A DNA stretch of 59,500 bases, filler included. It is 4 parts of 4 records of this genome, joined end to end, with 100 filler letters (N's around TTAATTAATTAA, not from the genome) between each part and the next. Parts side by side here need not be neighbours in the genome. Positions count along the whole stretch, not along the records: positions 34,227 to 53,339 come from SRR31156797_1147; 3 more parts are not named here. The stretch is one strand, 5' to 3'. Shown in pieces: positions 37,342 to 53,439 of the stretch (position 1 is its first letter; the number at the start of each line of letters is the position of its first letter). The notes beneath the pieces were generated by a model. It was given only the letters and a program-made list of their open reading frames with translations. It was not told where the DNA came from and ran no database searches. The position numbers were made by a program, and so were the translations under genes.

Positions 37342-37356
37342 GCTTAGAAAAGCCCC

Positions 37357-37854: not shown

Positions 37855-37904
37855 ATTTTGAGTAGTATTAACAATATGTTTTGCTTATATTCCCCTAAAA
37901 CAAA

Positions 37905-38126: not shown

Positions 38127-38158
38127 TTGAAACCTGTGGTAATGTTCTCTAATTTGAG

Positions 38159-38392: not shown

Positions 38393-38485
38393 GTATCTTC
38401 TCTTTTTCTTGAGGGCTTCCAGCCGACCCTTGAATGAGACATCGGATGGCCCGGAGTTCTTTCAAAATTTCGGATAGCAATTTTT

Positions 38486-38713
38486 TCATGCAGCACGTTC
38501 CTTTTTCGGTAGATTGACCAGGTATTTATAGAGCCGTCGCAGAATATCCTGGTAAAACTCTGAATCCCTGTACCCGGTCAACGCCATACTGATGGCATTC
38601 CGAGGAATACCCAGCACAGGTGTAAAGACATCTGTGATCGCGCCCTTGTAATCAAGGTCGTGATCCACCATGAGCTTTTTGACTGTTTTCCGTAACGGTT
38701 CTTGTTGTGGCAT
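38486..38713 (-). CDS. Cro-like HTH protein
   Basis: LGIPRNAISMALTG; phage-typical ERAA C-terminus. Confidence 0.55.
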   Translation of the reverse strand: MPQQEPLRKTVKKLMVDHDLDYKGAITDVFTPVLGIPRNAISMALTGYRDSEFYQDILRRLYKYLVNLPKKERAA

Positions 38714-38721
38714 AATGATAT

Positions 38722-39099
38722 TTGGAGTTTTTTTCTATGACCTACGCTTTGGTTGTGATTGAGAGACCTGACCTTTCAAACCCCGATAATATAGAAGCAT
38801 GGAATGATCTCTTATCAATTCTTTCGTGTAATAAAGGATCGAAAGTAGACCACCCCAGCCTCGACGACCCCAGAATAATTGGCGAAGGTATATTCCAAAT
38901 GAATATACGTGACGACGCAGGCATCCTTGTAGGTATGCTATCCTTCGCTCAAGAAATTGGGCTTCCATATCGGCTGGCACTTCTCGACCGTAAGCCGGAC
39001 TGGATTTATCCTGAAAACGATCAAGTTGAGGCGATAAGAGAAATATTCGTAGATTGTTTACAAAAACATCGTAGAAATACTGCTTCCGGTCTTCTTTAG
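38722..39099 (+). CDS. Hypothetical protein (conflicts with antisense ORF 38735-39259)
   Basis: GGAG SD before ATG at 38737; globular composition. Confidence 0.45.
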   Translation: MEFFSMTYALVVIERPDLSNPDNIEAWNDLLSILSCNKGSKVDHPSLDDPRIIGEGIFQMNIRDDAGILVGMLSFAQEIGLPYRLALLDRKPDWIYPENDQVEAIREIFVDCLQKHRRNTASGLL

Positions 39100-39265
39100 T
39101 CCGAAGGTCTTTGAATCTGCGTCTATCGCGATAGTCGTAATAATTGTCGTGGGTGATTTTGTGCAGTTTCATTAAGTGCCCCAGGTTGTAAGCGCCGCGT
39201 AAGGTCGATAATCGACATAGGCATCCGATTTCATGGTTTTCATATAGAGCATTCCTCATTTGATG

Positions 39266-39323
39266 TTGAGGGGATATTACACGAAATGAAATTTACTGTC
39301 AAGGTGGTATTTCATTATGAAAT
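39266..39323 (-). promoter_or_regulatory. Leftward early promoter plus operator
   Basis: Minus strand TTGACA-N17-TAATAT; palindrome ATTTCA-TTA-TGAAAT at 39309-39323. Confidence 0.8.
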
Positions 39324-39850
39324 CTAGTCAAGAAGATATTATTCAGCGGATAATGAAGGCATATAGCGCTACCGATGACGAGATGATGTCCAAATGCATG
39401 GGGTGTACTAAATCATCGGTTTCAAATTATCGGCATGGGCGGCGGAAGATTCCTATTAACCTGATAATGAAAGTATCCGAAGAAACGGGTCATTCAACCG
39501 ACTGGCTTTTAACCGGTAATTCGCCAAAAGCAAACGACACCCCCGTTGCTCATCAAGTTGTAGACCATGAAACATATCAGCAAGACACTGAAAGTCTCCT
39601 GGAAATCTACAAACACGGGAACCCAAAGACAATCTCGGCCATTCACGCAAATTTGGAAGAATTTGTTGAGAAAGTTCGTTACGAGAAGAAAGTCGCAGAA
39701 CTGGAAGAAACCGTTGCAAGTCAAGGTGTTGCCATAGAAGCCTATGGGAAAGCCCAGGAATCCATGAAGGAAGAGTTGAAAGAACTGAAATCCCAACTGT
39801 CTACAATGATACACGAGGTCCCCAAGAAAACGGCCAACGGGGGTGCGTGA
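39317..39850 (+). CDS. CI-like phage repressor (XRE HTH)
   Basis: MGCTKSSVSNYRHGRRKIP...STDWLLTG; coiled-coil C-terminus, no S24 peptidase. Confidence 0.8.
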   Translation: MKSSQEDIIQRIMKAYSATDDEMMSKCMGCTKSSVSNYRHGRRKIPINLIMKVSEETGHSTDWLLTGNSPKANDTPVAHQVVDHETYQQDTESLLEIYKHGNPKTISAIHANLEEFVEKVRYEKKVAELEETVASQGVAIEAYGKAQESMKEELKELKSQLSTMIHEVPKKTANGGA

Positions 39851-39997
39851 TTTACAAAGTGGTTGTAATGAACCATTATCCGGCTCTTTTGAAAGACAGT
39901 ATCTTCAGGAGATTTCGCTCGTATGGCCGTTATAAACTGTGGGCAATTCATAGAGATGGGGCAGTTATCTTAATATTAAGGATGGTGAGGAAACCCA

Positions 39998-41281
39998 ATG
40001 GACGAACATATTCCGAGGTGGAAGGTTTTTAGAGTCGATCACATAGATTACAAAGATAGATTGTTTTTCACTAAGGATTATGACGAAAAGTTCAATTTAA
40101 TTGAAAATGAGGCGTGTGATGTTCAAGAGTTTCTGGAAAGCGATTTAAATTTTGCGAAAACGCTCTATCCAGAATTTGTATATGATTTAGGCTTTTGTAA
40201 ATCCTGGAGGGAGCTTTGGAAAAAGTCGATTGAAAGTGATTTTACCAAAGAGTCGATTGCGAACCACGGTGCAAAAAAAAGACATATGAAGAAGTCACTC
40301 AAAGGAACTTCAAAAGAAGCTTTTTTGGAAGGGCCTGCTGGTTGGGATAGAGACTTCACCGATAATTTCGCTATATGGCCTTATTGGGACGAATATCGTT
40401 TCGAAATAGGCCGTTATGAAACGATTAACGGGATTGCGAAACAAAAACTAATCGATGAAGGTGGGTATGATTGGAGGGGTTTTGCTGTTTTTGTCGCAAA
40501 AGATAAAGGTGTTTTTTATGTTAATTTCGAGGTTAAACAGGATTGGTCCAAAGAGAGAGAAAACGAATTTTTTAAATGGATTGAGTCTGATGACCCCGGA
40601 CCTGTTATATTCAACGATCTTCTTTACGCCAAAGACCTTACAGATGTCTACACTGGTAAAGGCAACGTTGGTCATTGCATCGGATTCAATGAAAATAAGA
40701 TCGATATGGATGTTTTTGTTGGTGCAGATTACAAGAATTCAGATTACTTAAACCCACACCGGTATGCAGTTTTTACTGTGGATCGCGAATGGACGGTATG
40801 CTACCGAGAGGTATGGAAAAAAAGAAAAGCTGAACAGGACCGTATAGTAAAAGAAGCAAAACTTAATTTCGCAAGAATGGTCCTCAAGGATCGTTCTAAC
40901 AATCTTTCCATGGAAGCTATTCTGGAAAAAATCAGTTCATCCGATTTGGTCAGCGAGGAAGCATTGGAACTCATTGCCAAAGCATATGACCCTGTAGGGA
41001 TGGTTTATAAAAACGCCTATCAAGATGAAATCAATCGAATACGAGGTGAAAGCCATTGGACTTTCGGAACATCAATTCAGACTATAGAAGATCCTGAAAC
41101 AGGGTTACTGCGATTGGCTACGGGAACCAAAGGTGCATCTTTTTTGCTTGGCGTGACCCAAAGCACTGTTCGTAATCGGTTCAACAAAGGGAAGCTTGCC
41201 GGGATAAAGAACGATTCGATTTGGATATGGCTTGACACCATTAAAGACTCGGAGGAATTTGCAAATGTCGAAAGATTATGA
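39998..41281 (+). CDS. Hypothetical protein with C-terminal HTH
   Basis: 427 aa; GASFLLGVTQSTVRNRFNKGKL. Confidence 0.65.
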   Translation: MDEHIPRWKVFRVDHIDYKDRLFFTKDYDEKFNLIENEACDVQEFLESDLNFAKTLYPEFVYDLGFCKSWRELWKKSIESDFTKESIANHGAKKRHMKKSLKGTSKEAFLEGPAGWDRDFTDNFAIWPYWDEYRFEIGRYETINGIAKQKLIDEGGYDWRGFAVFVAKDKGVFYVNFEVKQDWSKERENEFFKWIESDDPGPVIFNDLLYAKDLTDVYTGKGNVGHCIGFNENKIDMDVFVGADYKNSDYLNPHRYAVFTVDREWTVCYREVWKKRKAEQDRIVKEAKLNFARMVLKDRSNNLSMEAILEKISSSDLVSEEALELIAKAYDPVGMVYKNAYQDEINRIRGESHWTFGTSIQTIEDPETGLLRLATGTKGASFLLGVTQSTVRNRFNKGKLAGIKNDSIWIWLDTIKDSEEFANVERL

Positions 41282-41402
41282 TAAAGATAGTGAAAATAAT
41301 GATGATTTTATCTTTGAGCATAACCCGGAAGAAAGAAACACGATCATAGACACCTTGCCACCACCGACGGAACCACCGGGGCAGGAAACCAATGATGAAT
41401 AG
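41265..41402 (+). CDS. 45-aa acidic Pro-rich peptide (not in ORF track)
   Basis: GGAGG SD at 41251; MSKDYDKDSENNDDFIFEHNPEERNTIIDTLPPPTEPPGQETNDE*. Confidence 0.55.
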   Translation: MSKDYDKDSENNDDFIFEHNPEERNTIIDTLPPPTEPPGQETNDE

Positions 41403-41413
41403 GAGAAAAACCT

Positions 41414-41935
41414 ATGTCAAACACAGCCTTTCACACCCTGCTATTTGGCGTTCGTCGTTCTATCCGATACCATTTGAGGCGCAGATCTTTTTTTGACCGT
41501 CTCAGTAAATTTTCGACATTCTTTGCCGCGTTGGCTGGAACCGCTACTGTTGCTTCTGTTCTGGGTAAAGCAGGTTATGGATGGACCGTTGCCTTTTCCG
41601 TGGCCGTGGCCGTCTTCTCAGTCATCGATCTGGTAATCGGATCCGCGCAGTCCGCCAGGTTGCATCACGATCTCGCGAGGCGATTTATCAATCTGGAAAA
41701 AGACATGGTTTCCCTGAAAAGCCCCACCCAAGAGGAGATTGACGGGCTAACCGGACGTCGGCTTGACATTGAAGCGGATGAACCTCCGCCTTTAAAGGTC
41801 TTGGATTGTATTTGTCATAATGAGTTATTGCGGGCCATGGGATACGACGAAAAAAAGTTTGCAAGAATACGCTGGTATCAACGCCTATTCTCCCAACTGT
41901 TTGATATTCGGGAGAATGTTATCACACGAAATTAA
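41414..41935 (+). CDS. SLATT-like 2-TM protein
   Basis: Basic N-terminal helix (YH..RR.F), two TM helices, A..H..L...F..L helix. Confidence 0.6.
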   Translation: MSNTAFHTLLFGVRRSIRYHLRRRSFFDRLSKFSTFFAALAGTATVASVLGKAGYGWTVAFSVAVAVFSVIDLVIGSAQSARLHHDLARRFINLEKDMVSLKSPTQEEIDGLTGRRLDIEADEPPPLKVLDCICHNELLRAMGYDEKKFARIRWYQRLFSQLFDIRENVITRN

Positions 41936-42366
41936 CCTATACAACGATCACCCATTTCCACCAGATATTTTTCAACCGCAGCGCAGAATAATTTTGAGCG
42001 GTCCAAACCTTTGGTTTCCTTGACGACTTTACCGGCCTTTTCCAACAGGTCCACCGGCACCATGACATTAATCCGCTTTTTCGGTTTATACGCTTCCATC
42101 ATTTTCTCATTTGGTACAACCGGGAAAACCAATTCCCCATCTCCGGCTTCCGTTTTGATTTTTTCATACGAACGTGGTGCCTGATATTCACGCCCCAGGC
42201 GACCGATCACGATCATACCACTTAATGCATCGGTGGCCATATGCAGGGCTTCATCCAGGTCCCCACCTTCAGTATGAACCCCTGGCGCATCCGGGAAGCT
42301 AACCCCCCAGCCTGTTTTCAAACGAAAAAATATACCGTAATAATGTTTCATTGTCGTTACCTCCAT
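41932..42366 (-). CDS. hicB: HicB family antitoxin
   Basis: VSFPD.PG..T.G....EA..MA.DAL plus C-terminal RHH (RINV.VP..LL, RS.L). Confidence 0.9.
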   Translation of the reverse strand: MEVTTMKHYYGIFFRLKTGWGVSFPDAPGVHTEGGDLDEALHMATDALSGMIVIGRLGREYQAPRSYEKIKTEAGDGELVFPVVPNEKMMEAYKPKKRINVMVPVDLLEKAGKVVKETKGLDRSKLFCAAVEKYLVEMGDRCIG

Positions 42367-42455
42367 TATTTATCGGCCTGTTTCAATATCCCTTTTGCCG
42401 TGTATTCATCAATTTCAGAGTGACGGGGGACGGGGCATCTGTAACCCTTCCGGCT
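42366..42455 (-). pseudogene. hicA: Truncated hicA toxin (C-terminal half only)
   Basis: Manual translation ...KGYRCPVPRHSEIDEYTAKGILKQADK*; in-frame stop upstream and no start codon. Confidence 0.7.
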
Positions 42456-42570
42456 TGATTATTACATACGTGTGTAAATATGCCAAGTCATGGCTATACG
42501 TTTTCGCAAAAGAATCATACTCACCACATGGCACTGAGTTTCGTGAAGGGTGTTTTTTTTTGCCTGAAAG

Positions 42571-42629
42571 ATTTCAATTTGAAATCTTCTCTTGACATAA
42601 AATTTCAATACGTGTAATATCCCCCTCAA
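42571..42629 (+). promoter_or_regulatory. Rightward early promoter plus operator
   Basis: ATTTCA-ATT-TGAAAT at 42571-42585; TTGACA(42592)-N17-TAATAT(42615). Confidence 0.8.
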
Positions 42630-42931
42630 GTTGTTCGAACACCCCCTGCGCCGCCGGATTGCCGAAACAATAACAGAATCCGGAGCGGGCCGCAAAAACA
42701 GGACGCACTGCGGAATGATCCGAGTACCCTGAGCGGTTGCGGGTGGAAGCAACGAGCAGTTGAAATGTCGCGGGTTAGCCAAGAGGGAACACGATGGAAA
42801 CAAAAGAGATCAAGTACAGCACCATCAATGGCATGGTGTCATGGAGTGGCAAAACCGAAAAACATGGGTTTATTGGGGTAATGAAGGGCAGCGTAGAACG
42901 GTTACAAGAAGCAATGGAAAAGGAATTCCCT

Positions 42932-43117
42932 TCATTCAGGGTCTCTCTTGTTCCCAAGTAACTCGTCCCGCGCTTCTTGGAGCCATATGATCAGGGTGTC
43001 TATTTGCTCCGGTGGGAATGTTACGCGATGGTAGTCTTCTTCGGCGGGCTCTCTCCCGTCAATAACGACAACATCTCCTTCGGTGGATACTGAAATTTCG
43101 TACATGTCTTTTTTCAT
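42932..43117 (-). CDS. Hypothetical small protein
   Basis: AGAGGA SD, globular 61 aa. Confidence 0.5.
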   Translation of the reverse strand: MKKDMYEISVSTEGDVVVIDGREPAEEDYHRVTFPPEQIDTLIIWLQEARDELLGNKRDPE

Positions 43118-43588
43118 TCTCTGATCCTCTTTTTAAAAAAAAGGGGGGGGGGTTGCTCGGAAATGTAAAACAAATTTCACCTGATGACAAGATTTTTTAA
43201 CCGTTTCGCGCAAGAGAGGCAGCAATGCCCCAGAGACGCGGAACAATAGCGCATTCACACCTAAACCCACAAACCTTTAACGCATAACCTCACGGGCAAA
43301 GGGCCGGGCGGTCCGGCCAGCGCGGAGAGACCTTCTTTCAGTTGGTGGATAGCTGGGATCTTCGATAATAGAGTACCGCACTTTGCCGGAAACCGTTAAC
43401 GTTAAGTAATCCTTAGAGAATTAATCGTCCAACCGCATGACGACGGGTAAAAACTGCGGATGATATGCCGGGGCAGCGCCGGCACGCCTGACGAGCGGAC
43501 AATGTCAACGCCATTTGGTTTACCAGAGTTGTAAAGCCCGGCGGTTACTTTGCCGTTCCGCCTGGCTTTACAAAAAAAAAGGAGGACC

Positions 43589-43699
43589 ATGGAAACCATA
43601 TTCGAATTCATAAATGCAATCTGGCCGGTTCTGGGCAGTACAATACTTGTCAGTGCTCTTTTTGCCCTGGTTCACCTGATAAAGGCCATTTTTTCATAA
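43589..43699 (+). CDS. 36-aa single-TM peptide (not in ORF track)
   Basis: AGGAGG SD; METIFEFINAIWPVLGSTILVSALFALVHLIKAIFS*. Confidence 0.6.
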   Translation: METIFEFINAIWPVLGSTILVSALFALVHLIKAIFS

Positions 43700-43724
43700 A
43701 CCCGTTTTGCACCTGGAGGTCGTC

Positions 43725-44822
43725 ATGAACGCGCAAGAATTGCAGGCGACATTAGAGTCGTTTCAAAAGGAAGGGGCACATTTGCTCCTACCGTCCACAT
43801 ACATTCCCGATATCCCTAAATATCATACGGTTGCGGTTGAGAGGGTATTCCTATCTCCCGATAAAAGCGAAGGCGATGTTTACACCCAAAAACAGAAACT
43901 CGCTTTAACCCGCCAGGGCCTCATGAAACTGGCCAATGCTGCCGGAATGATATGGGACCCCTCTGGCTCAAAGCGGTTGGATGATCGAACCGACAAAGAT
44001 TATGTGGTGTACCAAGCTGTGGGCGGATTAAAAAAACTCGACGGCACCCCGCTTTTTATGAAAGCGGAGTATGACCTGGATTTTGAAATTATCCGGGAAG
44101 AGACTGAAGAGGGATATGAGGAAAAAAAAAGGAAGGATTGGGTTACTGGAAAATGGAAAAAAGACTGGTTCATCAGGATGTCTGATGACCAAAAGGACGA
44201 ATATATCAATAAATGCATCCGGCGGGATGTACTTCAGAAACGTAAACATAAGATCAAGTTGGCCGAAACGGGTGCCATGACCCGGGTAATCCGGGGTTTG
44301 CTAAATCTCAAATCCACCTACACCGTTGAGGAACTGACAAAACCGTTCATCGTTGTCCGTCTGGTCTTCCAACCGGATTATGATGACCCTGAGATTAAAA
44401 GCCGCATGGCCGCCGCAGCCGTGGGTGCGGTTGCAGGAATATTTGGCCCGGCATCAACACAGCCGGCGCTCCCCCCGGCATCCCAGGCTTGCCCGGTATC
44501 TGATGCGGAGATCCCGGATGCTCTACCGATGGATGATGATATCCCCGGTGACATTCCAACCGGTGCGGATCCCGAGGCTACAAATGAAGGCCCTGATCTT
44601 GGGGAGTTCCTGGGAATGTCCGCAAAAAACCGACTTTCCCTTCTCGGGGCAATGGCGAAAAACCGCGGCATGAACGATTCAGCAGCACTATGGGCCTTTT
44701 GGACGAAAACAACGGGCAAGCCCGCGCCGCAAAACGCGTTGAAAATGCCCGAGGATGACATGGTTTCGCTGTTTGAAGCACTAGAATCGTTCAGCCCTGT
44801 TGATGACGATATCCCATTTTAG
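43725..44822 (+). CDS. Phage protein, probably recombination/ssDNA-annealing associated
   Basis: GGAGG SD before ATG 43725; SSB-like DDDIPF C-terminus; precedes sbcD/sbcC. Confidence 0.55.
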   Translation: MNAQELQATLESFQKEGAHLLLPSTYIPDIPKYHTVAVERVFLSPDKSEGDVYTQKQKLALTRQGLMKLANAAGMIWDPSGSKRLDDRTDKDYVVYQAVGGLKKLDGTPLFMKAEYDLDFEIIREETEEGYEEKKRKDWVTGKWKKDWFIRMSDDQKDEYINKCIRRDVLQKRKHKIKLAETGAMTRVIRGLLNLKSTYTVEELTKPFIVVRLVFQPDYDDPEIKSRMAAAAVGAVAGIFGPASTQPALPPASQACPVSDAEIPDALPMDDDIPGDIPTGADPEATNEGPDLGEFLGMSAKNRLSLLGAMAKNRGMNDSAALWAFWTKTTGKPAPQNALKMPEDDMVSLFEALESFSPVDDDIPF

Positions 44823-44833
44823 GAGCTGATATT

Positions 44834-46021
44834 ATGAAAGTACTCCATTTTGCAGATGTCCATGCCCGCGATAAGGATTTGCCCGAAATCGAAGAATGCC
44901 TAATCGAAATCATCCAGGTTGCACACGATGAAAATCCGGACCTGATTGTCATGGCCGGGGACACATTTGACAGTCGAATGGTTCGCCTGGACTCACTATC
45001 ATCGAAGCTCATCTTTGAGAGCTACAAACACTTGGCCGATATAGCTCCGATGATAGTGATCGTGGGCACTCCGTCACATGACGGCATGGCGCCGGAAGTC
45101 CTGGAACACATCAAAGCAGATCATGAAATCTATGTAGCAGAAATTCCCGAACAGATACTCTTGACCGCTGACAATCATTTTACAGTTTCCCCCGTAATCG
45201 AGACCCCTAAAGCTGTTATTTCGATGGTCCCTGCCCCTACCAAACAATTTTGGGAACAGGCGGGAAACGGCAACCAGGATATTGAAGAAGCTGACCAGGG
45301 GATAGCGAATGCTTTGGGTGTCATGATGGCAGGCTTCGGCGCCACAGCTTATGATCACGATTGCCCCCACATTATAGCCGGTCATTTTACAGTGGGTGGC
45401 GCCCAGGTTTCCGAAACGCAGGTGATGACCGGCAGGGAGATCGAGGTCTCCCGTGAACAAATCGGATACGCAAATGCCGACCTGGTGGCATTAGGCCACA
45501 TTCATTATGCCCAAAAGATAGACAGCAACATTTTCTATTCCGGATCGATTTACAGAAAAGATTGGGGTGAATTGGAAGACAAAGGATGCTTTATCCACAC
45601 CCTTGAAAGCGGCACCCTTCATAGCGTATTTCACGAAACCCCGTCAAAAAAGCGCATGAAAGTGTCGGCCGATCTTACAAACGGTTGTCGGTCCCTGGAA
45701 GATGCTCTCAGCAAATATGACCACCTGGAATTGCTCGATGCCCGAGTCCGTTTTGAAATCCGCGTCTTTCAGGATGAGGCTGGGAACATCGATACGGATT
45801 CGCTCATAAAGCAGTACCCGGACCTCGATATTAAAATTCAGCAGGTCCCCAGGGAATCCGTTAGATCATCCGCGATCCTCAAGGTTGAAACGCTTCCGGA
45901 CAAGATCAAAGCTATGGCGGAACTTCGACGGGAAACAGTCCCGGCAACCATCCTTGCCAAAGCTGAACACCTGGAACTCATGCATGCGGATGAACTTTTA
46001 AAAATGGTGGTCAATGGCTAA
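44834..46021 (+). CDS. SbcD/Mre11-like metallophosphoesterase nuclease
   Basis: D.H, AGD.FD, GTPSHD, ALGHIH, YSGS motifs. Confidence 0.88.
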   Translation: MKVLHFADVHARDKDLPEIEECLIEIIQVAHDENPDLIVMAGDTFDSRMVRLDSLSSKLIFESYKHLADIAPMIVIVGTPSHDGMAPEVLEHIKADHEIYVAEIPEQILLTADNHFTVSPVIETPKAVISMVPAPTKQFWEQAGNGNQDIEEADQGIANALGVMMAGFGATAYDHDCPHIIAGHFTVGGAQVSETQVMTGREIEVSREQIGYANADLVALGHIHYAQKIDSNIFYSGSIYRKDWGELEDKGCFIHTLESGTLHSVFHETPSKKRMKVSADLTNGCRSLEDALSKYDHLELLDARVRFEIRVFQDEAGNIDTDSLIKQYPDLDIKIQQVPRESVRSSAILKVETLPDKIKAMAELRRETVPATILAKAEHLELMHADELLKMVVNG

Positions 46022-46244
46022 AGCCAAATGGATGCCAATGGAAAAGCTTTGTTGTAACTGCCATTCGTACGACCTTTTCCATCATAAACGACCGCCAGAA
46101 GACAACGAATACGGTCAGGCATTTTGTGAATATTACGACAAATTCTTTCCAAACCAGGGGCCGGGGAACGATCCTGCCGGATTGAGGACCTGCATTCACT
46201 GGAAACAGAAATGGAAACCGGAGGAAAAGGATGAAGATAAATAG
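46014..46244 (+). CDS. Small Cys-rich protein
   Basis: CCNC...C...C; overlaps both neighbours. Confidence 0.55.
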   Translation: MAKAKWMPMEKLCCNCHSYDLFHHKRPPEDNEYGQAFCEYYDKFFPNQGPGNDPAGLRTCIHWKQKWKPEEKDEDK

Positions 46245-48516
46245 ATTGGCACTCAAGGGGTTCATCGGCATTAAAAAAGGAATGGGTCTTGACGAAATTG
46301 AATTGGACCTTTCCATGCTTAACGGCCTGATCGCATTAAGCGGGAAGAACGGCGCGGGAAAAACTTCCGTGTTGGAATCACTTACGCCGTACAGAACTCT
46401 CGCCAGCCGGAAAAAGGCACTAACCGCGCATTGTTTCATGAAGGATTCTAAAAAAGAGTTGGATTTTGATTTCCAGGGTGACAGCTATCAAACCCGGATC
46501 AAAATCAATGCGGATTCGGGTAAACAGGAAGGGTTTATTTGGCAAAACGGCGCCAGCCTCGTGAACGGAAGCGCACGGGAATATGACCGAAAGATTGCTG
46601 AGATATTTGGTTCAAAGGACCTCTTTTTCAATTCCATCTTTTGCGCCCAAAACGCACAGAAACTATCAGACCTGACCACCTCGAAACTGAAAGAGCTTTT
46701 TTCAGAATTCCTACAGCTGAACAAATACATTGCATACGAGAATACTGTCAAGAAATGCCTTGGGGCACTGGATGCACAACTTGGTGCCTACGAACGTCAA
46801 ACCGAGTCCCTGCAAGAAAAGATTGCACTATTGATAGGGTGTGAAGGGCAGCTTGAGGGAACCATTAAGGCTCAAGGTGAAGAAAAGACACGGCTGCAGC
46901 GGGTTGAAATTGAAATCGAAGCAAACGGGAAAGCCATTATAACTCTGAAAGAACGCATTGCCGCCATGGAAGCCATGGAAGCGAGATCAGATGATTTCCG
47001 GCAAAGGATCTATTCCACCGAATGCGCTCTTTCCGATGAAAAAACAGCGTATGAAGGGCGTGTAGGGGGTATCCGCAGCGACCTGCGAAAATGCAAAAAT
47101 GATCTTTCCAAAATAGAAACCATCCTGAAAATGAAAGACGAAATTGAAACGGCCGTATCTCAGAAAGCGGAGGTTGAAACACGTATTGAAGCACAAACAT
47201 CTAAGGCTGAAAATTGCCAAACAGAGCTATCAGAGATCCGGGAGAAAATCTATCAGCATGATCAAACTATTCTACCGTCAATCCAATCCCATAAGCGGGA
47301 AATGGATATTCCGATCTTGAAAGAGCGTATCATCAACGCAGAGGCCAAGGCCGTGGAATTAGAGAAGCGGGATCAGGAATGCACATCAAGCGTTTGTTCT
47401 TTCATCGTCGGTGCATTGCAAGCTCAGGAATCGATTGATGGATTGCGGAAGGACCTTGCAGCACTTGAAACAGAAGTGGCGAAACATAACGAGCATGTTG
47501 AAACCGTGAGAAAAAAAGCGGCCGAAGAGAAAGCCGAAATGCAGGGGATTGAAAAAGAGGTCTTACTCAAAATGACCTTACTGAAGAACAGACTTTCCAA
47601 GGCGAAAGTCGAACTTGCTGAGCATGCGCGACGAGCGGAACATCACGACGATTTAAAAGTAGCAATGGCTCAAAAATCCGCAATTGAGGCGCGGGCTTCC
47701 GAATTGACCGGTCAGGGGATGAAGGAAAAGCGTACATTTGATGCGAAAACCGTCAAATTACAGGCAGAAATGTCAAAATTTAAGGCTTCCTTGGAAGAAA
47801 TTACATCAAAAATCGACAATTCCGCGAAAGAAAGGCTTGGGGAACTGTTGGGAGTAAACACGAATAAAATCAACGAAAGAACATTTCTAAGAGACAATAT
47901 CAACAGGCTTGAAGCCGAAATACAACAATGCCGAAATGATATCGAAAGAGAAAAAGCTTACCGGGAGCAAAAAGCCGAAATCATCACGAAAATTGAAACC
48001 TTAAAAACCCAGATATCAGAATGGACCTACCTTCGCAATGCTGTATCAAAAGACGGACTCCGGGCCCTGGAGATTGATGGGGTTGCGCCGTCCATTTCCG
48101 CCTACGCAAACCAAATCCTTTTCAACACATTCGGTCCGGCTTATTCCGTGAAATTGCGGACACAGGACGATGAAGGCCGGGAAACCTTGGATATCTTGGC
48201 GCTTGAGGAAGACGGCCGGGAAACCCTCCTTGACGATTTGAGTGGTGGGGAAAAGGTTTGGAGTCTAAAGGCTCTGCGCCTAGCCATGACGCTGATCAGC
48301 AAAGAGAAAAGCGGGAAGGCATTTTTTACCGCCATGGCAGATGAGGAAGATGGGGCACTTGACGCTGGAAACTCACAAAATTTCGTCCATATGTATCGCT
48401 CTTTCATGGAAACCGGAGGATTCGATGACTGCTTTTTCATCTCTCACCGGCCGGAATGCGTAGCGCTCAGTGACCACGTTCTTTCGTTCGAAAGTGGCTG
48501 CATAAACATCAACTAA
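46231..48516 (+). CDS. SbcC/Rad50-like SMC ATPase
   Basis: GKNGAGKT, Q-loop, coiled coil with central C-x4-C, LSGGE, DE.DG.LD, ISH. Confidence 0.9.
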   Translation: MKINRLALKGFIGIKKGMGLDEIELDLSMLNGLIALSGKNGAGKTSVLESLTPYRTLASRKKALTAHCFMKDSKKELDFDFQGDSYQTRIKINADSGKQEGFIWQNGASLVNGSAREYDRKIAEIFGSKDLFFNSIFCAQNAQKLSDLTTSKLKELFSEFLQLNKYIAYENTVKKCLGALDAQLGAYERQTESLQEKIALLIGCEGQLEGTIKAQGEEKTRLQRVEIEIEANGKAIITLKERIAAMEAMEARSDDFRQRIYSTECALSDEKTAYEGRVGGIRSDLRKCKNDLSKIETILKMKDEIETAVSQKAEVETRIEAQTSKAENCQTELSEIREKIYQHDQTILPSIQSHKREMDIPILKERIINAEAKAVELEKRDQECTSSVCSFIVGALQAQESIDGLRKDLAALETEVAKHNEHVETVRKKAAEEKAEMQGIEKEVLLKMTLLKNRLSKAKVELAEHARRAEHHDDLKVAMAQKSAIEARASELTGQGMKEKRTFDAKTVKLQAEMSKFKASLEEITSKIDNSAKERLGELLGVNTNKINERTFLRDNINRLEAEIQQCRNDIEREKAYREQKAEIITKIETLKTQISEWTYLRNAVSKDGLRALEIDGVAPSISAYANQILFNTFGPAYSVKLRTQDDEGRETLDILALEEDGRETLLDDLSGGEKVWSLKALRLAMTLISKEKSGKAFFTAMADEEDGALDAGNSQNFVHMYRSFMETGGFDDCFFISHRPECVALSDHVLSFESGCININ

Positions 48517-48528
48517 GGGGGAAGCAGG

Positions 48529-49437
48529 ATGAAAATACAAGAATCAATAGAAACGTCTATCTCCTGCTTGAGCGATGGAGATTTAGTGGACAAGGCTTAC
48601 AGCGGGTTACTTTCTATCCTTGAACTGGTGAAAACAGACAAAAACACAGGTAAAATTGGCAACATGTGGATAAACAATGGGGGCAGGATACGGAGGGATT
48701 GGGATGTGTTTGAGCCTCTTGTGAAAGGGATCTATATACCGGGGTCGGAAAGATGTTTTTGGAGCGGTTTTTTGGACCCTGTTGATCACCCACCACCAGA
48801 ATCAGGATGTGTTTACATTAAACCAAGATATACCAATTACAGCTTTGAGTTTATTACAATTAAAAGAATCCGACGATTTCCAAAGCATGCGGTATGTCAG
48901 TGTAAGAATCCGGCTTTTATTTATAAGACAATCAATGTTTTTGTCCCAAGCAACAGTTCCGACGATGTTTTTTGTGAACCTGGATATGTCGCTATCGATA
49001 AAGACGGACTCTTTCACACAGTTACCGATAGATTGAAATTGAGAAACAACCTTCTTGGCAATATCATAACTTCAATTAAAGAAGATTTCCAAAACGCAAA
49101 TCATTTTGCCGGGGGTGCAATATCCCTGCTGTCTGACAGGCGCTACCTCTGGAATGTTAGAACAGAAGAGGATTCAGGGTTTTCTGCTCCAGCAGTCGTG
49201 AATTTCGGTGTGGAAAAAGAATTGATAAAGAGCCTTTTTTTCGCAAGGGATGAACCTATGACGAAATTGGGCCGAAAAAGACCAATTTTACATTGGGTTA
49301 AAGCCCATGAAAGAAGGATCAAGAAAGGAATCGGGATAGAAATAGACCGCTATTTGAGGGGTATAACAAAATTCAAAATGGGTGAGCTTGAATTTTCGAT
49401 CACCAAACCAATAAAAGGCGGCATAAGCATCAATTGA
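48529..49437 (+). CDS. Hypothetical phage protein
   Basis: 302-aa ORF in operon; C-terminal HWVKAHER motif. Confidence 0.6.
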   Translation: MKIQESIETSISCLSDGDLVDKAYSGLLSILELVKTDKNTGKIGNMWINNGGRIRRDWDVFEPLVKGIYIPGSERCFWSGFLDPVDHPPPESGCVYIKPRYTNYSFEFITIKRIRRFPKHAVCQCKNPAFIYKTINVFVPSNSSDDVFCEPGYVAIDKDGLFHTVTDRLKLRNNLLGNIITSIKEDFQNANHFAGGAISLLSDRRYLWNVRTEEDSGFSAPAVVNFGVEKELIKSLFFARDEPMTKLGRKRPILHWVKAHERRIKKGIGIEIDRYLRGITKFKMGELEFSITKPIKGGISIN

Positions 49438-49561
49438 TATCGACAATATGCCGTTTGCCCTCTGCGCTATGACGGCCCACCTTGGGGACGGTGCAAGACC
49501 AATACAAGGCGCCCGCGCGTATCAAAGGCCATGATAATGAGTCGAAGGGAAAGAGAGAGAG

Positions 49562-49912
49562 TTGGCAAGGCAAACGGCATTGAAAAAAAGGAGCACCCCA
49601 ATGACATTCGAAGAAATAGACACCCTGCAGCATCGAATAGAAACGCTATTCATGGATCAATGGGAGGGAATGCCCGAATCCAAACCCACCTACACCGAAT
49701 GGTTTTACAGCGATGGCGGTCCACGGGATGCGATTGACACGCTCTTGAACAAAATGCGGGATGCTGTAATTCAAAAAACGTATGTCCCGGGATGTATCAG
49801 GTCAAAAAATCAATTTTTCCGGCCGATTCAGGTGTGTGAGAGATGCAAGGATAAAGACTCTTGTGCCCCCTATATGGAAACAAAAGAGCGCCTTGACGAG
49901 GTGGCGGCATGA
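49562..49912 (+). CDS. Hypothetical protein (start probably ATG at 49601)
   Basis: AGGAG SD; Cys cluster; ATGA overlap with the helicase. Confidence 0.55.
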   Translation: MARQTALKKRSTPMTFEEIDTLQHRIETLFMDQWEGMPESKPTYTEWFYSDGGPRDAIDTLLNKMRDAVIQKTYVPGCIRSKNQFFRPIQVCERCKDKDSCAPYMETKERLDEVAA

Positions 49913-51588
49913 GCCTCCGGAAGCATCAGAAAGAATTTGGCGAAACAATTGACGGGATCATAGAGGGATCCGGCGTGAAAACAATTGTCCTGGACGTAAC
50001 ACCCGGCGGCGGGAAGTCTGCCATTCCTCCTATTGCCGGAAAACTCATTAAAGCAGGCCTGGCCGACGCGATAGCATGGATTGTGCCTCGGAAGGCATTA
50101 CAAGATCAGGGTGAGAGAACGTTTCTTGACCCTTTTTTTCGAGACATACTCGGGCATAAACTCACAATCCGCACAAGCACGAACGATGTGGACCCGTGCC
50201 GCGGGCTTAATGGCCTGATCACGACATATCAAGCCCTCGGTTTGTCCAACTGGAACCTCGTCGAAGATTTCAGTCGGAAGCGATACATTTTAATCCTTGA
50301 TGAGTTCCATCATGTGGCAAAAGCCGGGACGTGGCATAAGGCCCTCGCCCCGTTGGTCGAAAAAGCCGCGTTTAAGGTCTTCATGACTGGAACCATGGCC
50401 AGGGGGGACCGGGAAGACATCGCTTTTTTGAAATACCAGATGGGAAGGCCGGTTTTCGGCCCCGAAACCAAATATATTGGGTACGGCCGTACCATGGCCC
50501 TGCAGGAACGGGCAATCATCCCGTTGCGCTTCCGTCTTTCCGATGCACAAGCGGCTTGGAGGAACGAAAGCAATGAAAAAGTCGAAGTTGAAAGTATCGC
50601 TAGAGTATACCGCCCTAAAGAGCTTTCAGCCGCCATTTACACGGCAGTGCGGACAGATTTCGCAAAAGCCCTTCTGGAAAGCAGCCTGGCTGACTGGCGC
50701 CAATACCGGTCGCGTACCGGCCATATGTCGGCCTTCCTGGCGGTAACCGCGGATGTGAAGCATGCCAAGCAAGTATTGAAATACCTTCAGGCCCGCGGCC
50801 TTCACGCGGAAATCGCAACCAGCCATGACAGTCCGCAGGCGCACAGGGCAATCAAAGGGTATAAGGCTGGAGAGTTCGATATTTTAGTCTCGGTGGCCAT
50901 GGCTTATGAAGGTCTCGATGTCCCGAGAATTACACATATCGCGAGTCTGACGCAGATCCGCAGTGAGCCTTGGATAATTCAGATGCTTGCCCGCGCGGTA
51001 AGAGTTGATCGCGCCATTCCATACGAGCAGCAAGAGGCTTTCATCTATGCCCCGGATGACCACCTTTTCAGGAAGATCGTGAACAATATCAAAGCCGAGC
51101 AGACAGCCATGGCTGGAAAATTCGGGCTCGAAATCGAAAGAGAATCCAAATCAGAAGGCGGCGGTGGACCGGACGTAATCCCCATTGGATCCACTCTCAC
51201 CGGGGACCGTTCCATCTTCCTGGGCGGAGGAAACGGAAACGCCTTCACACCTCCGCCCCCGGCGCCCATGCCGAAAACCCCGACAGAAATTGAGGCGGAA
51301 TTGAGAACGGAGATTGAGGAACACATCCGGAAATACTGCTACACGCACCACATTAAGATCCAGAAGATCAACGCCAGGATAAAACGGGAAACGGGGAAAG
51401 CCCGGCCGGAAATGACTTTGGCGGAGCTGGAGACGACCCTTGCCTTAGTTCGGGATCGGTATCCTTTGGACCGGAAGGGTAGGAAGCCAATAAGGCCCGT
51501 TATCAGCAAGCCAAGGACGGTTGTATGTGAGGGTCCGGGGGTACATGTGCAGGGGATTCTTTGGGAAACTCCGGAATGGCGAGCGTGA
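49909..51588 (+). CDS. SF2 DExH helicase (ResIII-like)
   Basis: TPGGGKS, DEFHH, TGT, EGLDVP, Q.L.RA.R. Confidence 0.88.
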   Translation: MSLRKHQKEFGETIDGIIEGSGVKTIVLDVTPGGGKSAIPPIAGKLIKAGLADAIAWIVPRKALQDQGERTFLDPFFRDILGHKLTIRTSTNDVDPCRGLNGLITTYQALGLSNWNLVEDFSRKRYILILDEFHHVAKAGTWHKALAPLVEKAAFKVFMTGTMARGDREDIAFLKYQMGRPVFGPETKYIGYGRTMALQERAIIPLRFRLSDAQAAWRNESNEKVEVESIARVYRPKELSAAIYTAVRTDFAKALLESSLADWRQYRSRTGHMSAFLAVTADVKHAKQVLKYLQARGLHAEIATSHDSPQAHRAIKGYKAGEFDILVSVAMAYEGLDVPRITHIASLTQIRSEPWIIQMLARAVRVDRAIPYEQQEAFIYAPDDHLFRKIVNNIKAEQTAMAGKFGLEIERESKSEGGGGPDVIPIGSTLTGDRSIFLGGGNGNAFTPPPPAPMPKTPTEIEAELRTEIEEHIRKYCYTHHIKIQKINARIKRETGKARPEMTLAELETTLALVRDRYPLDRKGRKPIRPVISKPRTVVCEGPGVHVQGILWETPEWRA

Positions 51589-51604
51589 TGATCTTAAAGT
51601 TTAT

Positions 51605-51708
51605 GCGGCTGGGCTCACAGCCGAAGGGTGAGGGCTACCCAGCCACTCACCAACCTAACAACCACTATAGGTGAAACATTTCAACCTGTATAGCATCAAG
51701 ATGTTGGG
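51605..51708 (+). ncRNA. tracrRNA-like scaffold, copy A
   Basis: Shares a 29-nt identical block, CACTCACCAACCT, GGTGAAACA and ATCAAGATGTTGGG with 53157-53281; hairpins; anti-repeat GGTGAAAC. Confidence 0.7.
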
Positions 51709-51793
51709 GTTTCACTCACGGGCGCGGGGATGAGTCGTTACATGTTAACAAGGGAAGGAAGGGGCATTAGTTTCACCCACGGGCGCGGAACCG
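51709..51793 (+). CRISPR. Mini CRISPR array: 29-nt repeat, 32-nt spacer, degenerate repeat
   Basis: GTTTCACTCACGGGCGCGGGGATGAGTCG (51709-51737); TTACATGTTAACAAGGGAAGGAAGGGGCATTA (51738-51769); GTTTCACCCACGGGCGCGGAACCG (51770-51793). Confidence 0.8.
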
Positions 51794-51831
51794 CACAAAT
51801 CAAGACCCGGAGCTACTATTAGGAGGGAAAA

Positions 51832-53223
51832 TTGAAGACACATACAAGGACAATAAAACCGCAATTGAAAATCAAAGCTTCTTCCCCCGACGCAAAAAAA
51901 CGGGCGTACAAACGTTTGTATCAGATATCAAATGATGCATGGCGGGCGGCCAATTGGGTCATCGGTGGCCAATATTTAAACGATTTACTTATGCGCCGGG
52001 TTTATGCTCGGAAAAAGATTAACGCAAAAAAAGACACGGATGCGATACAGGCGGTTGAAAAAGAAATTTTCGATAAAACGGGATTCTTCGGGTTAAAACG
52101 TCAAGCGTCAACGGAAAGGGATATTAAAGAAGCTTTCCCTGAGTTGCCGCCGTGTGTGACAAATTCTATGAATAGTGTGCTTTTCGCAAATTACAAAAAA
52201 GACAAACCGGATATGCTCATGGGAAAACGATCTTTACGCTCATATAAAGAGGGCATGCCTATCCAGGTTTCCAAAGCATCCGTGACGTTTTTTAAAGAAG
52301 GCAACAATCATTACATTCGATGGAAGTTGAGTAGGTCTGAGGAAATTCTATTCACCATTGAATACGGCAAAGACAAAGCGAACTTCCAGGGAACCGTTTC
52401 AGCTATCTTAGAGGGCGATCTCGATTTTTCAGCGCCACAAATTCAAATAAAAAAAAGAAAAACCTTCCTTTGTTTACCTGCCAAAGAACCTGAAAGACCG
52501 GCAGAGATAGACCCGGAATTATCCGTGGGGGTCAATCTGGGGATGCTCACGCCTGCTTACGTTGTGCTTGCCGACAATTCCGAACATCAACCCATCGGTT
52601 CGGGTAACGATTTTGGTCGGGTCAGATTGCAGATGCAGGACCGTCGAAAACGCCTGCAAAAAGACTTAAAATCGGCAAGGGGCGGTAAAGGCAGGAAAAA
52701 GAAGATGAAGGCCATGTCTCGAATCCGAGACAAAGAACGGAATTTTGCGCGAAGCTACAATCATTTTGTCAGCAAGGAAATACTCAATTTTACTACGAAA
52801 AACCGGGCGGGAGTGATCAAGCTGGAGATGTTGGAAGGTTTTGGAAAGTCCGAAAGAAATGCTTTGGTTCTGCGGAACTGGTCATATTTCGAGTTACAGG
52901 AAATGGTGAAATACAAGGCCAAACGATTAGGCATCAAGGTTGTAAAAGTGGACCCGTATATGTCCAGCCAAACTTGTGCCTTATGTGGGCATCACGAAAA
53001 AGGTCAGGTAGATAACGTATCCAAGACGTTCCTTTGTAAAGCGTGCAACAAAATTATGGATTCTGACCACAATGCGGCTCTGAACAATGCGAAATCGACC
53101 AATATCGTTACCAAGAAAGAGCAATGCGTTGTTTGGAAAAAAAATATGAAAAAAAAGCGGCTGGGCTCACAGCCGAAGGGTGAGGCTGAGGGTGAAGCCC
53201 TTGAGCACTCACCAACCTCGTAA
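51832..53223 (+). CDS. Cas12f/TnpB-family RNA-guided protein, RuvC-I Asp replaced by Asn (predicted nuclease-dead)
   Basis: SLRSYKEGMPI, GVNLG (N235), GGKGRKKK, NH.VSK, IKLE (E332), LRNWSYFELQ..V.YKA, CALC/CKAC zinc finger, DSDHNAALN (D412); AGGAGG SD, TTG start. Confidence 0.88.
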   Translation: MKTHTRTIKPQLKIKASSPDAKKRAYKRLYQISNDAWRAANWVIGGQYLNDLLMRRVYARKKINAKKDTDAIQAVEKEIFDKTGFFGLKRQASTERDIKEAFPELPPCVTNSMNSVLFANYKKDKPDMLMGKRSLRSYKEGMPIQVSKASVTFFKEGNNHYIRWKLSRSEEILFTIEYGKDKANFQGTVSAILEGDLDFSAPQIQIKKRKTFLCLPAKEPERPAEIDPELSVGVNLGMLTPAYVVLADNSEHQPIGSGNDFGRVRLQMQDRRKRLQKDLKSARGGKGRKKKMKAMSRIRDKERNFARSYNHFVSKEILNFTTKNRAGVIKLEMLEGFGKSERNALVLRNWSYFELQEMVKYKAKRLGIKVVKVDPYMSSQTCALCGHHEKGQVDNVSKTFLCKACNKIMDSDHNAALNNAKSTNIVTKKEQCVVWKKNMKKKRLGSQPKGEAEGEALEHSPTS

Positions 53224-53281
53224 CCCTTTTTCAGGCGCTATGTGTTGCGGGTGAAACAGATATCCCTATCAAGATGTTGGG
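53157..53281 (+). ncRNA. tracrRNA-like scaffold, copy B (overlaps the 3' end of the cas12f-like ORF)
   Basis: Same conserved blocks as copy A; anti-repeat GGGTGAAAC at 53249-53257. Confidence 0.72.
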
Positions 53282-53339
53282 GTTTCACCCACGGGCGCGG
53301 GGATGAGTCGGTCATTGGTGGCGGCATCGGATAGCAGCC
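53282..53339 (+). CRISPR. Start of a CRISPR array, truncated at contig end
   Basis: Repeat GTTTCACCCACGGGCGCGGGGATGAGTCG (53282-53310, 28/29 identical to 51709-51737) plus 29 nt of putative spacer. Confidence 0.72.
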
Positions 53340-53439
53340 NNNNNNNNNNNNNNNNNNNNNNNNNNNNNNNNNNNNNNNNNNNNTTAATTAATTAANNNNN
53401 NNNNNNNNNNNNNNNNNNNNNNNNNNNNNNNNNNNNNNN
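53340..53439. other. Artificial contig linker
   Basis: N44-TTAATTAATTAA-N44. Confidence 0.98.

Follow-up and report, generated by a model that had tools for sequence, protein, structure and literature searches.

Does a Cas12f-like protein that carries asparagine in place of the first catalytic aspartate of its RuvC domain still cut DNA, does it bind DNA without cutting, or does the substitution reflect an error or a gene in decay? This question is raised by a locus near the end of one contig in the window, the whole stretch of 59,500 nucleotides (filler included) that we analysed and that consists of four contigs joined by artificial linkers (Table 1). The contig with the cas12f-like gene at its end is phage- or plasmid-like, and its GC content of about 39-54% contrasts with 22-37% in the other three contigs of the window.

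Table 1. Positions along the window of the cas12f-like gene, its active-site residues, the guide RNA and CRISPR features and their surroundings
Feature	Position	Strand	Remarks
Contig carrying the locus	34227..53339		19.1 kb, separate; mobile-element-like gene content
SF2 helicase gene (ResIII/Helicase_C)	49909..51588	+	same strand as the cas12f-like gene
Upstream tracr/omega-like guide scaffold	51605..51737	+	ends in CRISPR repeat 1 (51709-51737, 29 nt)
Spacer, upstream mini-array	51738..51769	+	32 nt
Degenerate terminal repeat	51770..51797	+	agrees with the repeat over its first 19 nt; the start codon follows after 34 nt
cas12f-like gene	51832..53223	+	full length, 463 aa; predicted nuclease-inactive (N235, V393)
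Asn235 (AAT)	52534..52536	+	in place of the catalytic Asp of RuvC-I; opposite AsCas12f1 D225 in the alignment; motif GVNLG
Glu332	52825..52827	+	RuvC-II, kept
Val393 (GTA)	53008..53010	+	in the TNB/Nuc zinc ribbon, where the family has an invariant Arg; opposite AsCas12f1 R383 in the alignment
Asp412	53065..53067	+	RuvC-III, kept
Downstream guide scaffold	53157..53310	+	overlaps the gene over its final 22 codons; ends in repeat 53282-53310
First downstream spacer	53311..53339	+	cut by the contig end
Artificial linker, not biology	53340..53439		N44-TTAATTAATTAA-N44, joining contigs

By profile and by fold, the 463-aa protein is a true Cas12f, a type V-F effector of the CnCas12f1/Al3Cas12f clade. 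It matches the NCBIfam family guided_TnpB (E 2.7e-46; 158.6 bits against a cut-off of 100) and the Pfam family Cas12f1-like_TNB (E 4.5e-20). A profile of its homologs (alignment A1) retrieved from the PDB the structures of Al3Cas12f (9nzo, E 5.7e-132; about 6e-132 for 9nzo and 9nzr) and CnCas12f1 (8hr5, E 1.5e-120), as well as a natural dCas12f (9n9c, E 1.5e-72), 7wju (E 5.9e-70) and 7l48 (E 1.3e-49), and a search with the single sequence gave 8hr5 at E 1.9e-61 and 9n9c at E 2.6e-34. When the AlphaFold (AF2) model of the protein (pLDDT 94.3, pTM 0.82) was submitted to Foldseek, CnCas12f1, Al3Cas12f and AsCas12f occupied ranks 1-9 with probability 1.00, led by 8hr5, 9nzr and 9nzo and then by AsCas12f structures. 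Profile matches, model and fold ranking uphold the Cas12f call of the initial annotation; in terms of function, however, this member of Cas12f by descent is not a predicted nuclease. TranC, the transposon-CRISPR intermediate, was considered since the scaffold overlaps the gene end, and was not adopted as primary label because LaTranC (E 3e-9) falls some 120 orders of magnitude short of the Cas12f structures; ISDra2 TnpB (E 2.4e-8) is likewise a far weaker match. We also rejected a transposon-borne TnpB: IS200_TnpB (71 bits against 425) and IS607_TnpB (53 against 350) stay far under their cut-offs, no TnpA-like match occurs on the contig, and the guides come from spacers set between CRISPR repeats, not from the DNA flanking a transposon as with an omega RNA.

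The gene is a single, unbroken ORF with a TTG start and an AGGAGG ribosome-binding site ahead of it. Positions 52525-52542 read gtg ggg gtc aat ctg ggg, which bears out the AAT codon and the GVNLG motif reported for residue 235 in the initial annotation, and translation together with alignment A1 confirms that Glu332 and Asp412 are present in an uninterrupted frame, as it had also stated. The RuvC-I column of A1 (121 rows) holds aspartate in 106 rows, asparagine in 12, the query included, and histidine in three; it is flanked by G233 and G237, both invariant, and Asn235 therefore sits at the RuvC-I aspartate of the family. A phmmer alignment with 8j3r, a chain of AsCas12f, places N235/E332/V393/D412 opposite D235/E334/R393/D411, and the 10-residue offset of this chain relative to the 422-aa chain 7wju translates these into D225/E324/R383/D401 of AsCas12f1.

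A second loss, absent from the initial annotation, is the exchange of arginine for Val393. All 102 Asp-bearing rows of A1 with a residue in this column have arginine, and the other Asn clades have isoleucine or leucine there, while the four zinc-ribbon cysteines (C382, C385, C402 and C405) are intact. The Asp-Glu-Asp set plus the Nuc/TNB arginine thus reads N235, E332, V393 and D412, and the active site is not intact. RuvC, RNase H and retroviral integrases become inactive when the aspartate that supplies the first carboxylate is exchanged for asparagine. In AsCas12f1, D225A and R383A each abolish cleavage as single changes; two residues that are each needed for cleavage are therefore replaced in the present protein, which is predicted not to cut. 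The corresponding acidic triad of Un1Cas12f1 is D326/E422/D510, and its R490A variant loses cleavage (PMC8053092). The TldR preprint states, in its text on the DED motif, that mutating any of these residues abolishes nuclease activity (10.1101/2023.11.30.569447).

The CRISPR content adjoining the gene comprises two repeats and one spacer upstream, and one repeat with a cut spacer downstream. Since the downstream repeat also occurs in further contigs of the same run (22,991 nt and 88 nt; depth about 37), the downstream array continues beyond the contig end. Both scaffold copies contain the anti-repeat GGGTGAAAC upstream of the repeat GTTTCACCC; in the MFE fold of the downstream copy these two elements pair, and in that of the upstream copy the anti-repeat is taken up by local pairing. 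Conservation of the scaffold extends over eight sequences, in which stems 1 and 2 stay paired through compensatory changes that affect 6 of the 26 predicted pairs; a search against Rfam gave nothing at the gathering threshold. Asp-bearing relatives carry the same scaffold and repeat at the 3' end of the gene, followed by true arrays with a period of 61 (at least 11 repeats in locus L002, six in L003 and 22 in L004), and in several of them arrays flank the gene on both sides. The scaffold and repeat are likewise present in an Asn-bearing sister locus (L081), which has multi-spacer arrays on both sides of its gene and the same layout of the degenerate terminal repeat. Predicted promoters and terminators between 51300 and 53339 were no more numerous than in shuffles, and no RNA run containing the stretch is listed among public runs.

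Within the window, neither readable spacer has a second match at up to three or up to nine mismatches, and the longest exact internal matches (12 and 11 nt) lie off the 5' end of the guide and are at about chance level. The first 20 nt of either spacer had no exact match in viral_contigs, and 69 spacers from the arrays of the fetched relatives, a set that does not include the window's own spacer, matched the same arrays in related loci alone.

Asparagine at the RuvC-I position is shared with the sister protein from L081 (P0002), which is 58% identical to the query (P0001; SH-aLRT 99), reads GVNLG with the identical AAT codon and has isoleucine in place of the arginine. A comparison of the two genes gives a dN of 0.34 and a saturated dS; the segment from RuvC-II to RuvC-III has a dN of 0.29 and a dS of 3.6, and RuvC-TNB is the most conserved part, its dN of 0.29-0.30 lying below the 0.39 of the N-terminal half. 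Purifying selection has kept the fold, the zinc ribbon, the RuvC-II glutamate, the RuvC-III aspartate and the guide-RNA genes. A1 also contains a separate, all-Asn clade (seven rows, support 100, 53-65% pairwise identity), in which glutamate, aspartate and cysteines are kept and leucine occupies the arginine position in 7/7. Monophyly of the two Asn clades is rejected (delta lnL 251, p-AU 0.0003) in an AU test whose group was picked after the tree had been seen. When the query was combined with 150 representatives at 50% identity, 13 of the 151 rows, the query among them, had asparagine; ten of these 13 are without the arginine and three keep it. Across phylogenetically independent pairs on supported branches, the arginine changes in the same direction in 2.6 cases on average and in the opposite direction in 0.0, and the association of the two losses is not significant in this underpowered set of five pairs (p 0.25).

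Scanning viral_contigs and genome_contigs with the single protein returned no close relative, and the A4 search for other Asn lineages returned none from viral_contigs and one locus from genome_contigs (L087), which is Asp-bearing and frameshifted. The A6 search of genome_contigs found nothing closer than 32%, and curated phage and plasmid records gave distant TnpB-family matches alone, at 40% identity or less.

The caveat attached to Asn235 in the initial annotation was an error of sequencing or assembly, or else a mutation that arose very recently in a single strain. It would fit the facts that GAT to AAT is a single transition and that the sequence is present in one public run only. We regard this explanation as close to refuted. 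A second assembler gives the same letters: a Logan contig that is 20,935 nt long and has a word depth of 36.7 matches 51600-53330 with no differing letter, has AAT at 52534 and lists no variant, although this is a comparison of contigs, not raw reads, within the single public run that contains the stretch, probably the source sample, and is not independent sequencing. The caveat is further contradicted by the AAT-encoded asparagine of the sister, the saturated dS and the second lost catalytic residue, and the asparagine recurs elsewhere in the family. A neutral loss of the nuclease on the way to a pseudogene, with no function maintained, also appears highly improbable. The loss of two catalytic residues and an upstream array reduced to a single spacer with a degenerate terminal repeat would be compatible with such decay, but the ORF runs unbroken through all 463 aa and yields a model of high pLDDT, and its dN relative to a sister with the same asparagine remains low against a saturated dS. 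Moreover, the scaffold stems are conserved, the sister has multi-spacer arrays, the array of this locus continues in the sample, and the separate seven-member Asn clade retains its glutamate, aspartate and cysteines.

It is less far-fetched, and still unlikely, that the protein is a nuclease of weak or altered activity, in which Asn235, Glu332 and Asp412 hold one metal ion for slow cleavage, nicking or RNA processing. Glu332, Asp412, Ser379 and the zinc ribbon are kept in every Asn clade, and these three residues and the whole RuvC/TNB region are as conserved as in active relatives, which would also fit a pocket whose catalytic role has been retained or altered; the lower dN of RuvC-TNB points in the same direction, and multi-spacer arrays resemble immune arrays more than single regulatory guides. 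The inactivation of RuvC, RNase H and retroviral integrases by the same exchange argues against residual cleavage, as do the two AsCas12f1 variants, both of whose positions are changed here. The TldR preprint's statement on the DED motif does so as well. A dead effector could also act as a targeting module that recruits in trans an enzyme, such as the SF2 helicase, or a transcription factor, which we consider rather improbable. The helicase variant is proposed by analogy with type IV CasDinG or Cas3, and 16 nt separate the end of the helicase gene from the upstream scaffold, which lies on the same strand; the transcription-factor variant follows dCas12f-sigmaE, where recruitment of sigmaE by a natural dCas12f is a published precedent (PMC13472631). 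However, the helicase neighbourhood rests on one locus, the 2.2-kb sister contig holds no neighbours, an Asn-bearing relative (L029) is without a helicase in the 4 kb upstream, and helicases are common phage and plasmid cargo. For the sigma factor, a Pfam scan of 15 ORFs from the contig, at whose end the gene lies, gave no match to a family of this kind.

Our preferred reading, which we consider probable, is that this full-length Cas12f is a guide-directed DNA binder that does not cut, like other natural dead Cas12f proteins, and that it acts in a CRISPRi-like manner and is carried on a mobile element. The natural dCas12f proposed in the initial annotation is thereby supported, and strengthened by Val393 and by the sister, with binding without cutting predicted from the sequence. 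The effector would assemble with guides from the scaffold-repeat-spacer unit and from the CRISPR arrays that flank its gene. The complex might then form R-loops on matching DNA, remain bound without cutting and block transcription or replication of its targets. As the contig is phage- or plasmid-like, these targets would probably be competing mobile elements, or else host or own promoters.

More tentatively, full-length Cas12f proteins of the type N-E-(V/I/L)-D could represent a convergent, uncharacterised class of cleavage-free CRISPR effectors with multi-spacer arrays on phages and plasmids, a possibility to which we give distinctly less weight. Independent lineages have in common the changes of aspartate to asparagine, of arginine to an aliphatic residue, of alanine to serine beside RuvC-III and of isoleucine to asparagine, with glutamate and aspartate kept. 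If such a class exists, its active site would have been remodelled for a new job and not simply lost. It might hold the displaced strand and so lock the R-loop for a durable silencing of rival elements, or alternatively pass this strand on to a partner, for example the helicase encoded next to it.

CnCas12f1 and Al3Cas12f (8hr5, 9nzo, 9nzr; PMC13186708), the best matches in sequence and fold, are of similar size and have a CCCC zinc ribbon. The locus resembles this nuclease-active clade in its tracr-like scaffold with anti-repeat and in the 29-nt repeats and 32-nt spacers that adjoin the gene. It differs from active Cas12f in the exchanges of the RuvC-I aspartate for asparagine and of the Nuc/TNB arginine for valine, in a first repeat that is covalently joined to the scaffold and in a scaffold that overlaps the 3' end of the gene. 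Furthermore, arrays lie on both sides of the gene, as they also do in several Asp-bearing relatives, and no match to cas1, cas2 or cas4 occurs among 15 ORFs scanned on the 19-kb contig.

For natural nuclease-dead derivatives of TnpB and Cas12f, RNA-guided roles have recently been shown, namely as repressors in TldR (10.1101/2023.11.30.569447) and as activators in dCas12f-sigmaE (PMC13472631). The dCas12f-sigmaE system (Hoffmann et al., Nature 2026, PMC13472631; 9n9c, 9n9m) belongs to the same Cas12f branch and is naturally nuclease-inactive, and its guide RNA, like the one predicted here, has the scaffold 5' and the guide 3'. The paper deals with the natural dCas12f of Bacteroidota in sigmaE-associated RNA-guided transcription, and also mentions an uncharacterised putative dCas12f cluster near CRISPR arrays that is proposed to repress efflux promoters (PMC13472631). 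Published dCas12f is described there as C-terminally truncated (365 aa), so that RuvC-III and the TNB domain are missing, with arrays mostly lost and located in rpoE operons, often together with an HTH gene, whereas the protein studied here is full length, carries point substitutions only and has kept its arrays, its TNB and Asp412; the 365-aa chain 9n9c aligns to residues 4-371 only of the 463-aa protein. TldR proteins arose by repeated, independent inactivation of TnpB-type RuvC domains with guide binding retained, are often phage-borne and block RNA polymerase; they have one adjacent guide, no CRISPR arrays and a tie to fliC or oppF (Wiegand et al., 10.1101/2023.11.30.569447). The TldR screen of the same preprint selected a protein only if fewer than two of its DED residues were conserved, and an N-E-D protein, which keeps two, would not have been picked by this rule. 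We did not assign the present protein to TldR: it retains two of the three DED residues, its gene has CRISPR repeats on either side, and fliC and oppF are absent from the locus contig.

Natural dCas12f is already known from these publications, and what appears to be new in the present locus is the combination of full length, predicted inactivation by point changes and flanking arrays. It would represent a different route to a dead effector, in which a full-length Cas12f is switched off via two point changes that recur in separate lineages. If confirmed, the effector would provide a CRISPRi-type interference module that occurs in nature, measures about 460 aa and has its single-guide architecture already built in. 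Screens that consider Asp-Glu-Asp only, or that need two lost residues, would then undercount dead effectors, because the Nuc-domain arginine is a second marker.

Guide-directed binding without cutting is also a property of Cas12m (type V-M), Cas12k and type IV systems, which often reside on or act against mobile elements. They share the proposed mode of action with the present effector and differ from it in lineage and guide architecture: the A1 profile matched Cas12m chains at E 7.5e-11 to 2.6e-6, in the TNB region alone, and Cas12k at E 5e-5.

The reading frame of the Cas12f-like protein in the window runs uninterrupted over 463 residues, and nucleotides 52525-52542 (GTG GGG GTC AAT CTG GGG) encode GVNLG, so that the RuvC-I position holds asparagine, as the initial annotation had read it. 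Also as annotated, E332 and D412, the other members of the RuvC catalytic Asp-Glu-Asp (DED), are kept. Four cysteines (382, 385, 402, 405) are present too. When the protein is aligned with its 120 best database relatives (alignment A1), 106 rows have Asp at column 235, 12 have Asn (the window protein included) and three have His, between glycines that are invariant on both sides.

Features of the third contig around the cas12f-like gene
Feature	Position	Strand	Remarks
SNF2-helicase/N6-N4 DNA-methylase fusion	34375-36873	-	832 aa
CI-type repressor	39317-39850		
HicB-like antitoxin	41932-42366	-	
SbcD/SbcC-like pair	44834-48516	+	
SF2 helicase (ResIII/Helicase_C)	49909-51588	+	559 aa; ends 16 nt before upstream scaffold
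Upstream guide module	51605-51737		just 5' of gene; ends in 29-nt CRISPR repeat
cas12f-like gene	51832-53223	+	one open frame, 463 aa; TTG start after AGGAGG site
Codon 235, AAT (Asn)	52534-52536	+	RuvC-I position
Downstream guide module	53157-53310		begins 22 codons before stop; ends in 29-nt CRISPR repeat

The assignment to Cas12f was right. NCBIfam assigns the protein to guided_TnpB, a broad subfamily (E 2.7e-46), and Pfam finds a Cas12f1-like TNB domain, and comparison of an A1 profile with all PDB chains scores Cas12f structures far above all else: Al3Cas12f (9nzo/9nzr, 6e-132), CnCas12f1 (8hr5, 1.5e-120), the natural dCas12f (9n9c, 1.5e-72), AsCas12f (7wju, 6e-70) and Un1Cas12f1 (7l48, 1e-49), against 3e-9 for LaTranC and 2e-8 for ISDra2 TnpB. 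A Foldseek search with the confident AlphaFold2 model (mean pLDDT 94.3) ranks the same structures at the top.

A second catalytic residue is replaced as well. When each column of A1 is compared between the Asp-bearing rows and the 15 rows with Asn or His, position 393, which lies in a loop that separates the two Cys pairs, is among the strongest differences after column 235. Every one of the 102 Asp-bearing rows with a residue at this position has Arg, but it is Val in the window protein, Ile in its sister protein P0002, Leu in 7/7 members of a separate all-Asn clade and Lys in the homologue P0048; the singletons P0035 (Asn), P0040 (His) and P0058 (His) keep Arg. With phmmer, N235/E332/V393/D412 stand opposite D235/E334/R393/D411 of the 432-residue AsCas12f chain 8j3r, whose numbering is offset by 10 residues from that of the 422-residue chain 7wju, and thus correspond to D225/E324/R383/D401 of AsCas12f1. 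For Un1Cas12f1, one study gives the acidic triad as D326/E422/D510 and reports loss of cleavage in R490A (PMC8053092). By this alignment, two of four individually essential residues, at 235 and 393, are replaced in the window protein. Near the active site, further changes are common to both Asn clades of A1: Ala to Ser at 411, beside RuvC-III, Ile to Asn at 419, and Thr378 to Ser, Val or Ile. Gln to His at 356 and Gln to Asn at 392 are confined to the seven-row clade. The changes in these two independent clades may reflect convergent remodelling around RuvC-III.

The initial annotation had allowed for an assembly error or a recent mutation, which our data do not bear out. A second assembler's contig (20,935 nt, depth 36.7) is letter-identical to the window over 51600-53330; it comes from the sole public run with this DNA, probably its source, and is an assembled contig rather than reads, so it argues against an assembly slip without being independent sequencing. 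The closest relative, P0002 (58% identity, supported sister with SH-aLRT 99), shares the Asn, with GVNLG and the same AAT codon, in a gene that lies between two multi-spacer arrays on its contig. Sequencing or assembly error is accordingly very improbable. Compared with each other, the two genes have a dN of 0.34 and saturated dS (0.29 and 3.6 in the RuvC-II to RuvC-III segment), and this low dN against saturated dS indicates that Asn235 was maintained through long purifying selection; gene decay we regard as improbable.

Asn at this position has arisen repeatedly. A tree built from 113 A1 rows, with column 235 omitted, requires at least four changes to Asn: in the pair of P0001 (the window protein) and P0002, in two singletons and in a seven-row clade (support 100). 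A tree constrained to unite the pair with the seven-row clade is 251 log-likelihood units worse (p-AU 0.0003; the seven columns that discriminate most were left out, and the test group was named after the tree was seen). When 1.84 billion cluster representatives were searched exhaustively, 273 proteins matched at E 1e-30 or better; among the best 150 of these plus the window protein, 118/151 carry D-E-R-D at the four positions and 13, the window protein included, Asn at RuvC-I, with the Arg missing in 10 of these 13. Of five phylogenetically independent pairs, too few for significance (p 0.25), on average 2.6 show Arg changing in the same direction as Asp and 0.0 in the opposite one. At fetched loci, Asn occurred in one of 80 from genomes (L029), one of six from metagenomes (the sister) and none of a further 81 (80 viral loci and L087). 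The gene of L087 (Cytophagales, 6001-7415) has a perfect 23-nt tandem duplication (6876-6921) that shifts the frame, a short N run and a small array of 36-nt repeats downstream; the copy is broken, or else the assembly is at fault. Several Chryseobacterium genomes (L176, L178, L182-L184), some with two copies each, have shorter matches that end near residue 380-393 of the window protein; these may be the published dCas12f of the sigmaE type, which is C-terminally truncated.

A guide module of about 135-155 nt is present in two copies around the gene. Behind the upstream copy come a 32-nt spacer and a terminal repeat that is degenerate; behind the downstream copy comes a spacer cut by the contig end. 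The same repeat occurs at equal depth in 22,991-nt and 88-nt contigs of the public run, so that the array continues with more spacers. In Asp-bearing relatives from public genomes the same module lies at the gene's 3' end and leads straight into true arrays (at least 11 repeats in locus L002, six in L003 and 22 in L004, all of period 61), and several relatives also have an upstream array. Locus L001 (Asp-bearing, 57% identity) has its only array (143-420) upstream of the gene and no recognisable scaffold downstream of the gene; array position thus varies within the clade. The scaffold has two conserved 5' stems, in which 6 of 26 predicted pairs show compensatory changes across eight sequences. 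Both copies carry the anti-repeat GGGTGAAAC upstream of the matching repeat GTTTCACCC; the downstream copy's MFE fold pairs the two, and in the upstream copy's fold the anti-repeat forms local pairs, not pairs with the repeat.

The protein has lost two catalytic residues but keeps its fold, zinc ribbon, RNA scaffold and arrays. It is best read as a Cas12f that would load guides and form R-loops on target DNA without cutting, acting by occupancy of a promoter, gene or origin. The natural dCas12f that the initial annotation proposed gains support from the second lost residue, the sister's Asn and the recurrence in other lineages. Our data show its sequence, family, architecture and retention in evolution, and from these we infer loss of cleavage, retained binding and role. 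Residual or altered catalysis, for which the still conserved Glu, Asp and whole pocket would speak, is unlikely, and it is less likely still that a dead effector recruits a partner, for instance the helicase encoded upstream. For the non-cutting binder, the several different spacers in the arrays here and in the sister look more like interference against other elements than one fixed regulatory guide; spacer targets were not found in the window, viral contigs or fetched loci.

Natural nuclease-dead relatives have been published, namely the TldR repressors (10.1101/2023.11.30.569447) and a dCas12f that recruits sigmaE for RNA-guided transcription (PMC13472631). Unlike these, the window protein is full length, seemingly inactivated by point changes and flanked by arrays on a mobile-element-like contig, with no sigma factor in view. 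The TldR screen retained only proteins with <2 conserved DED residues (10.1101/2023.11.30.569447), a rule that does not cover N-E-D proteins. The lineage might already stand in the trees of the TldR and dCas12f papers.

The third contig (34227-53339, 19.1 kb), which carries the gene at its right end, has a G+C of about 39-54%, higher than the 22-37% of the other three; depth within the locus is about 37. Linkers (N44-TTAATTAATTAA-N44) at 15383-15482, 34127-34226 and 53340-53439 join the four contigs, so that the window is not one molecule and adjacency across these points is artificial, as with the tRNA-Arg (34004-34080) before the third contig and the peptidase U32 gene after 53440; ORFs crossing linkers, such as 53384-54253 (-), have artefactual ends. 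The gene content of the third contig is phage- or plasmid-like cargo, and its scanned ORFs gave no match to cas1, cas2, cas4, a transposase or a sigma factor. The contig may belong to the same organism, as a phage or plasmid, or be mis-binned from another; the relatives of its Cas12f are from MAGs of Desulfobacterota, Phycisphaerae and Anaerolineales. Asp-bearing relatives with 51% identity (L085, 1818-4626, and the IMG/VR contig L088) lie on phage-like DNA, with an array on each side of the gene, near gp32-like SSB, HNH and RecA/UvsX-like genes, and in L003 genes for a resolvase and a tyrosine integrase are close by. All of the subclade seems to reside on mobile elements without nearby adaptation genes. 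On the low-GC contigs, a bacterial small SRP RNA (Rfam, 45 bits; 1107-1203) and the tRNA-Arg, with anticodon TCT, are ordinary.
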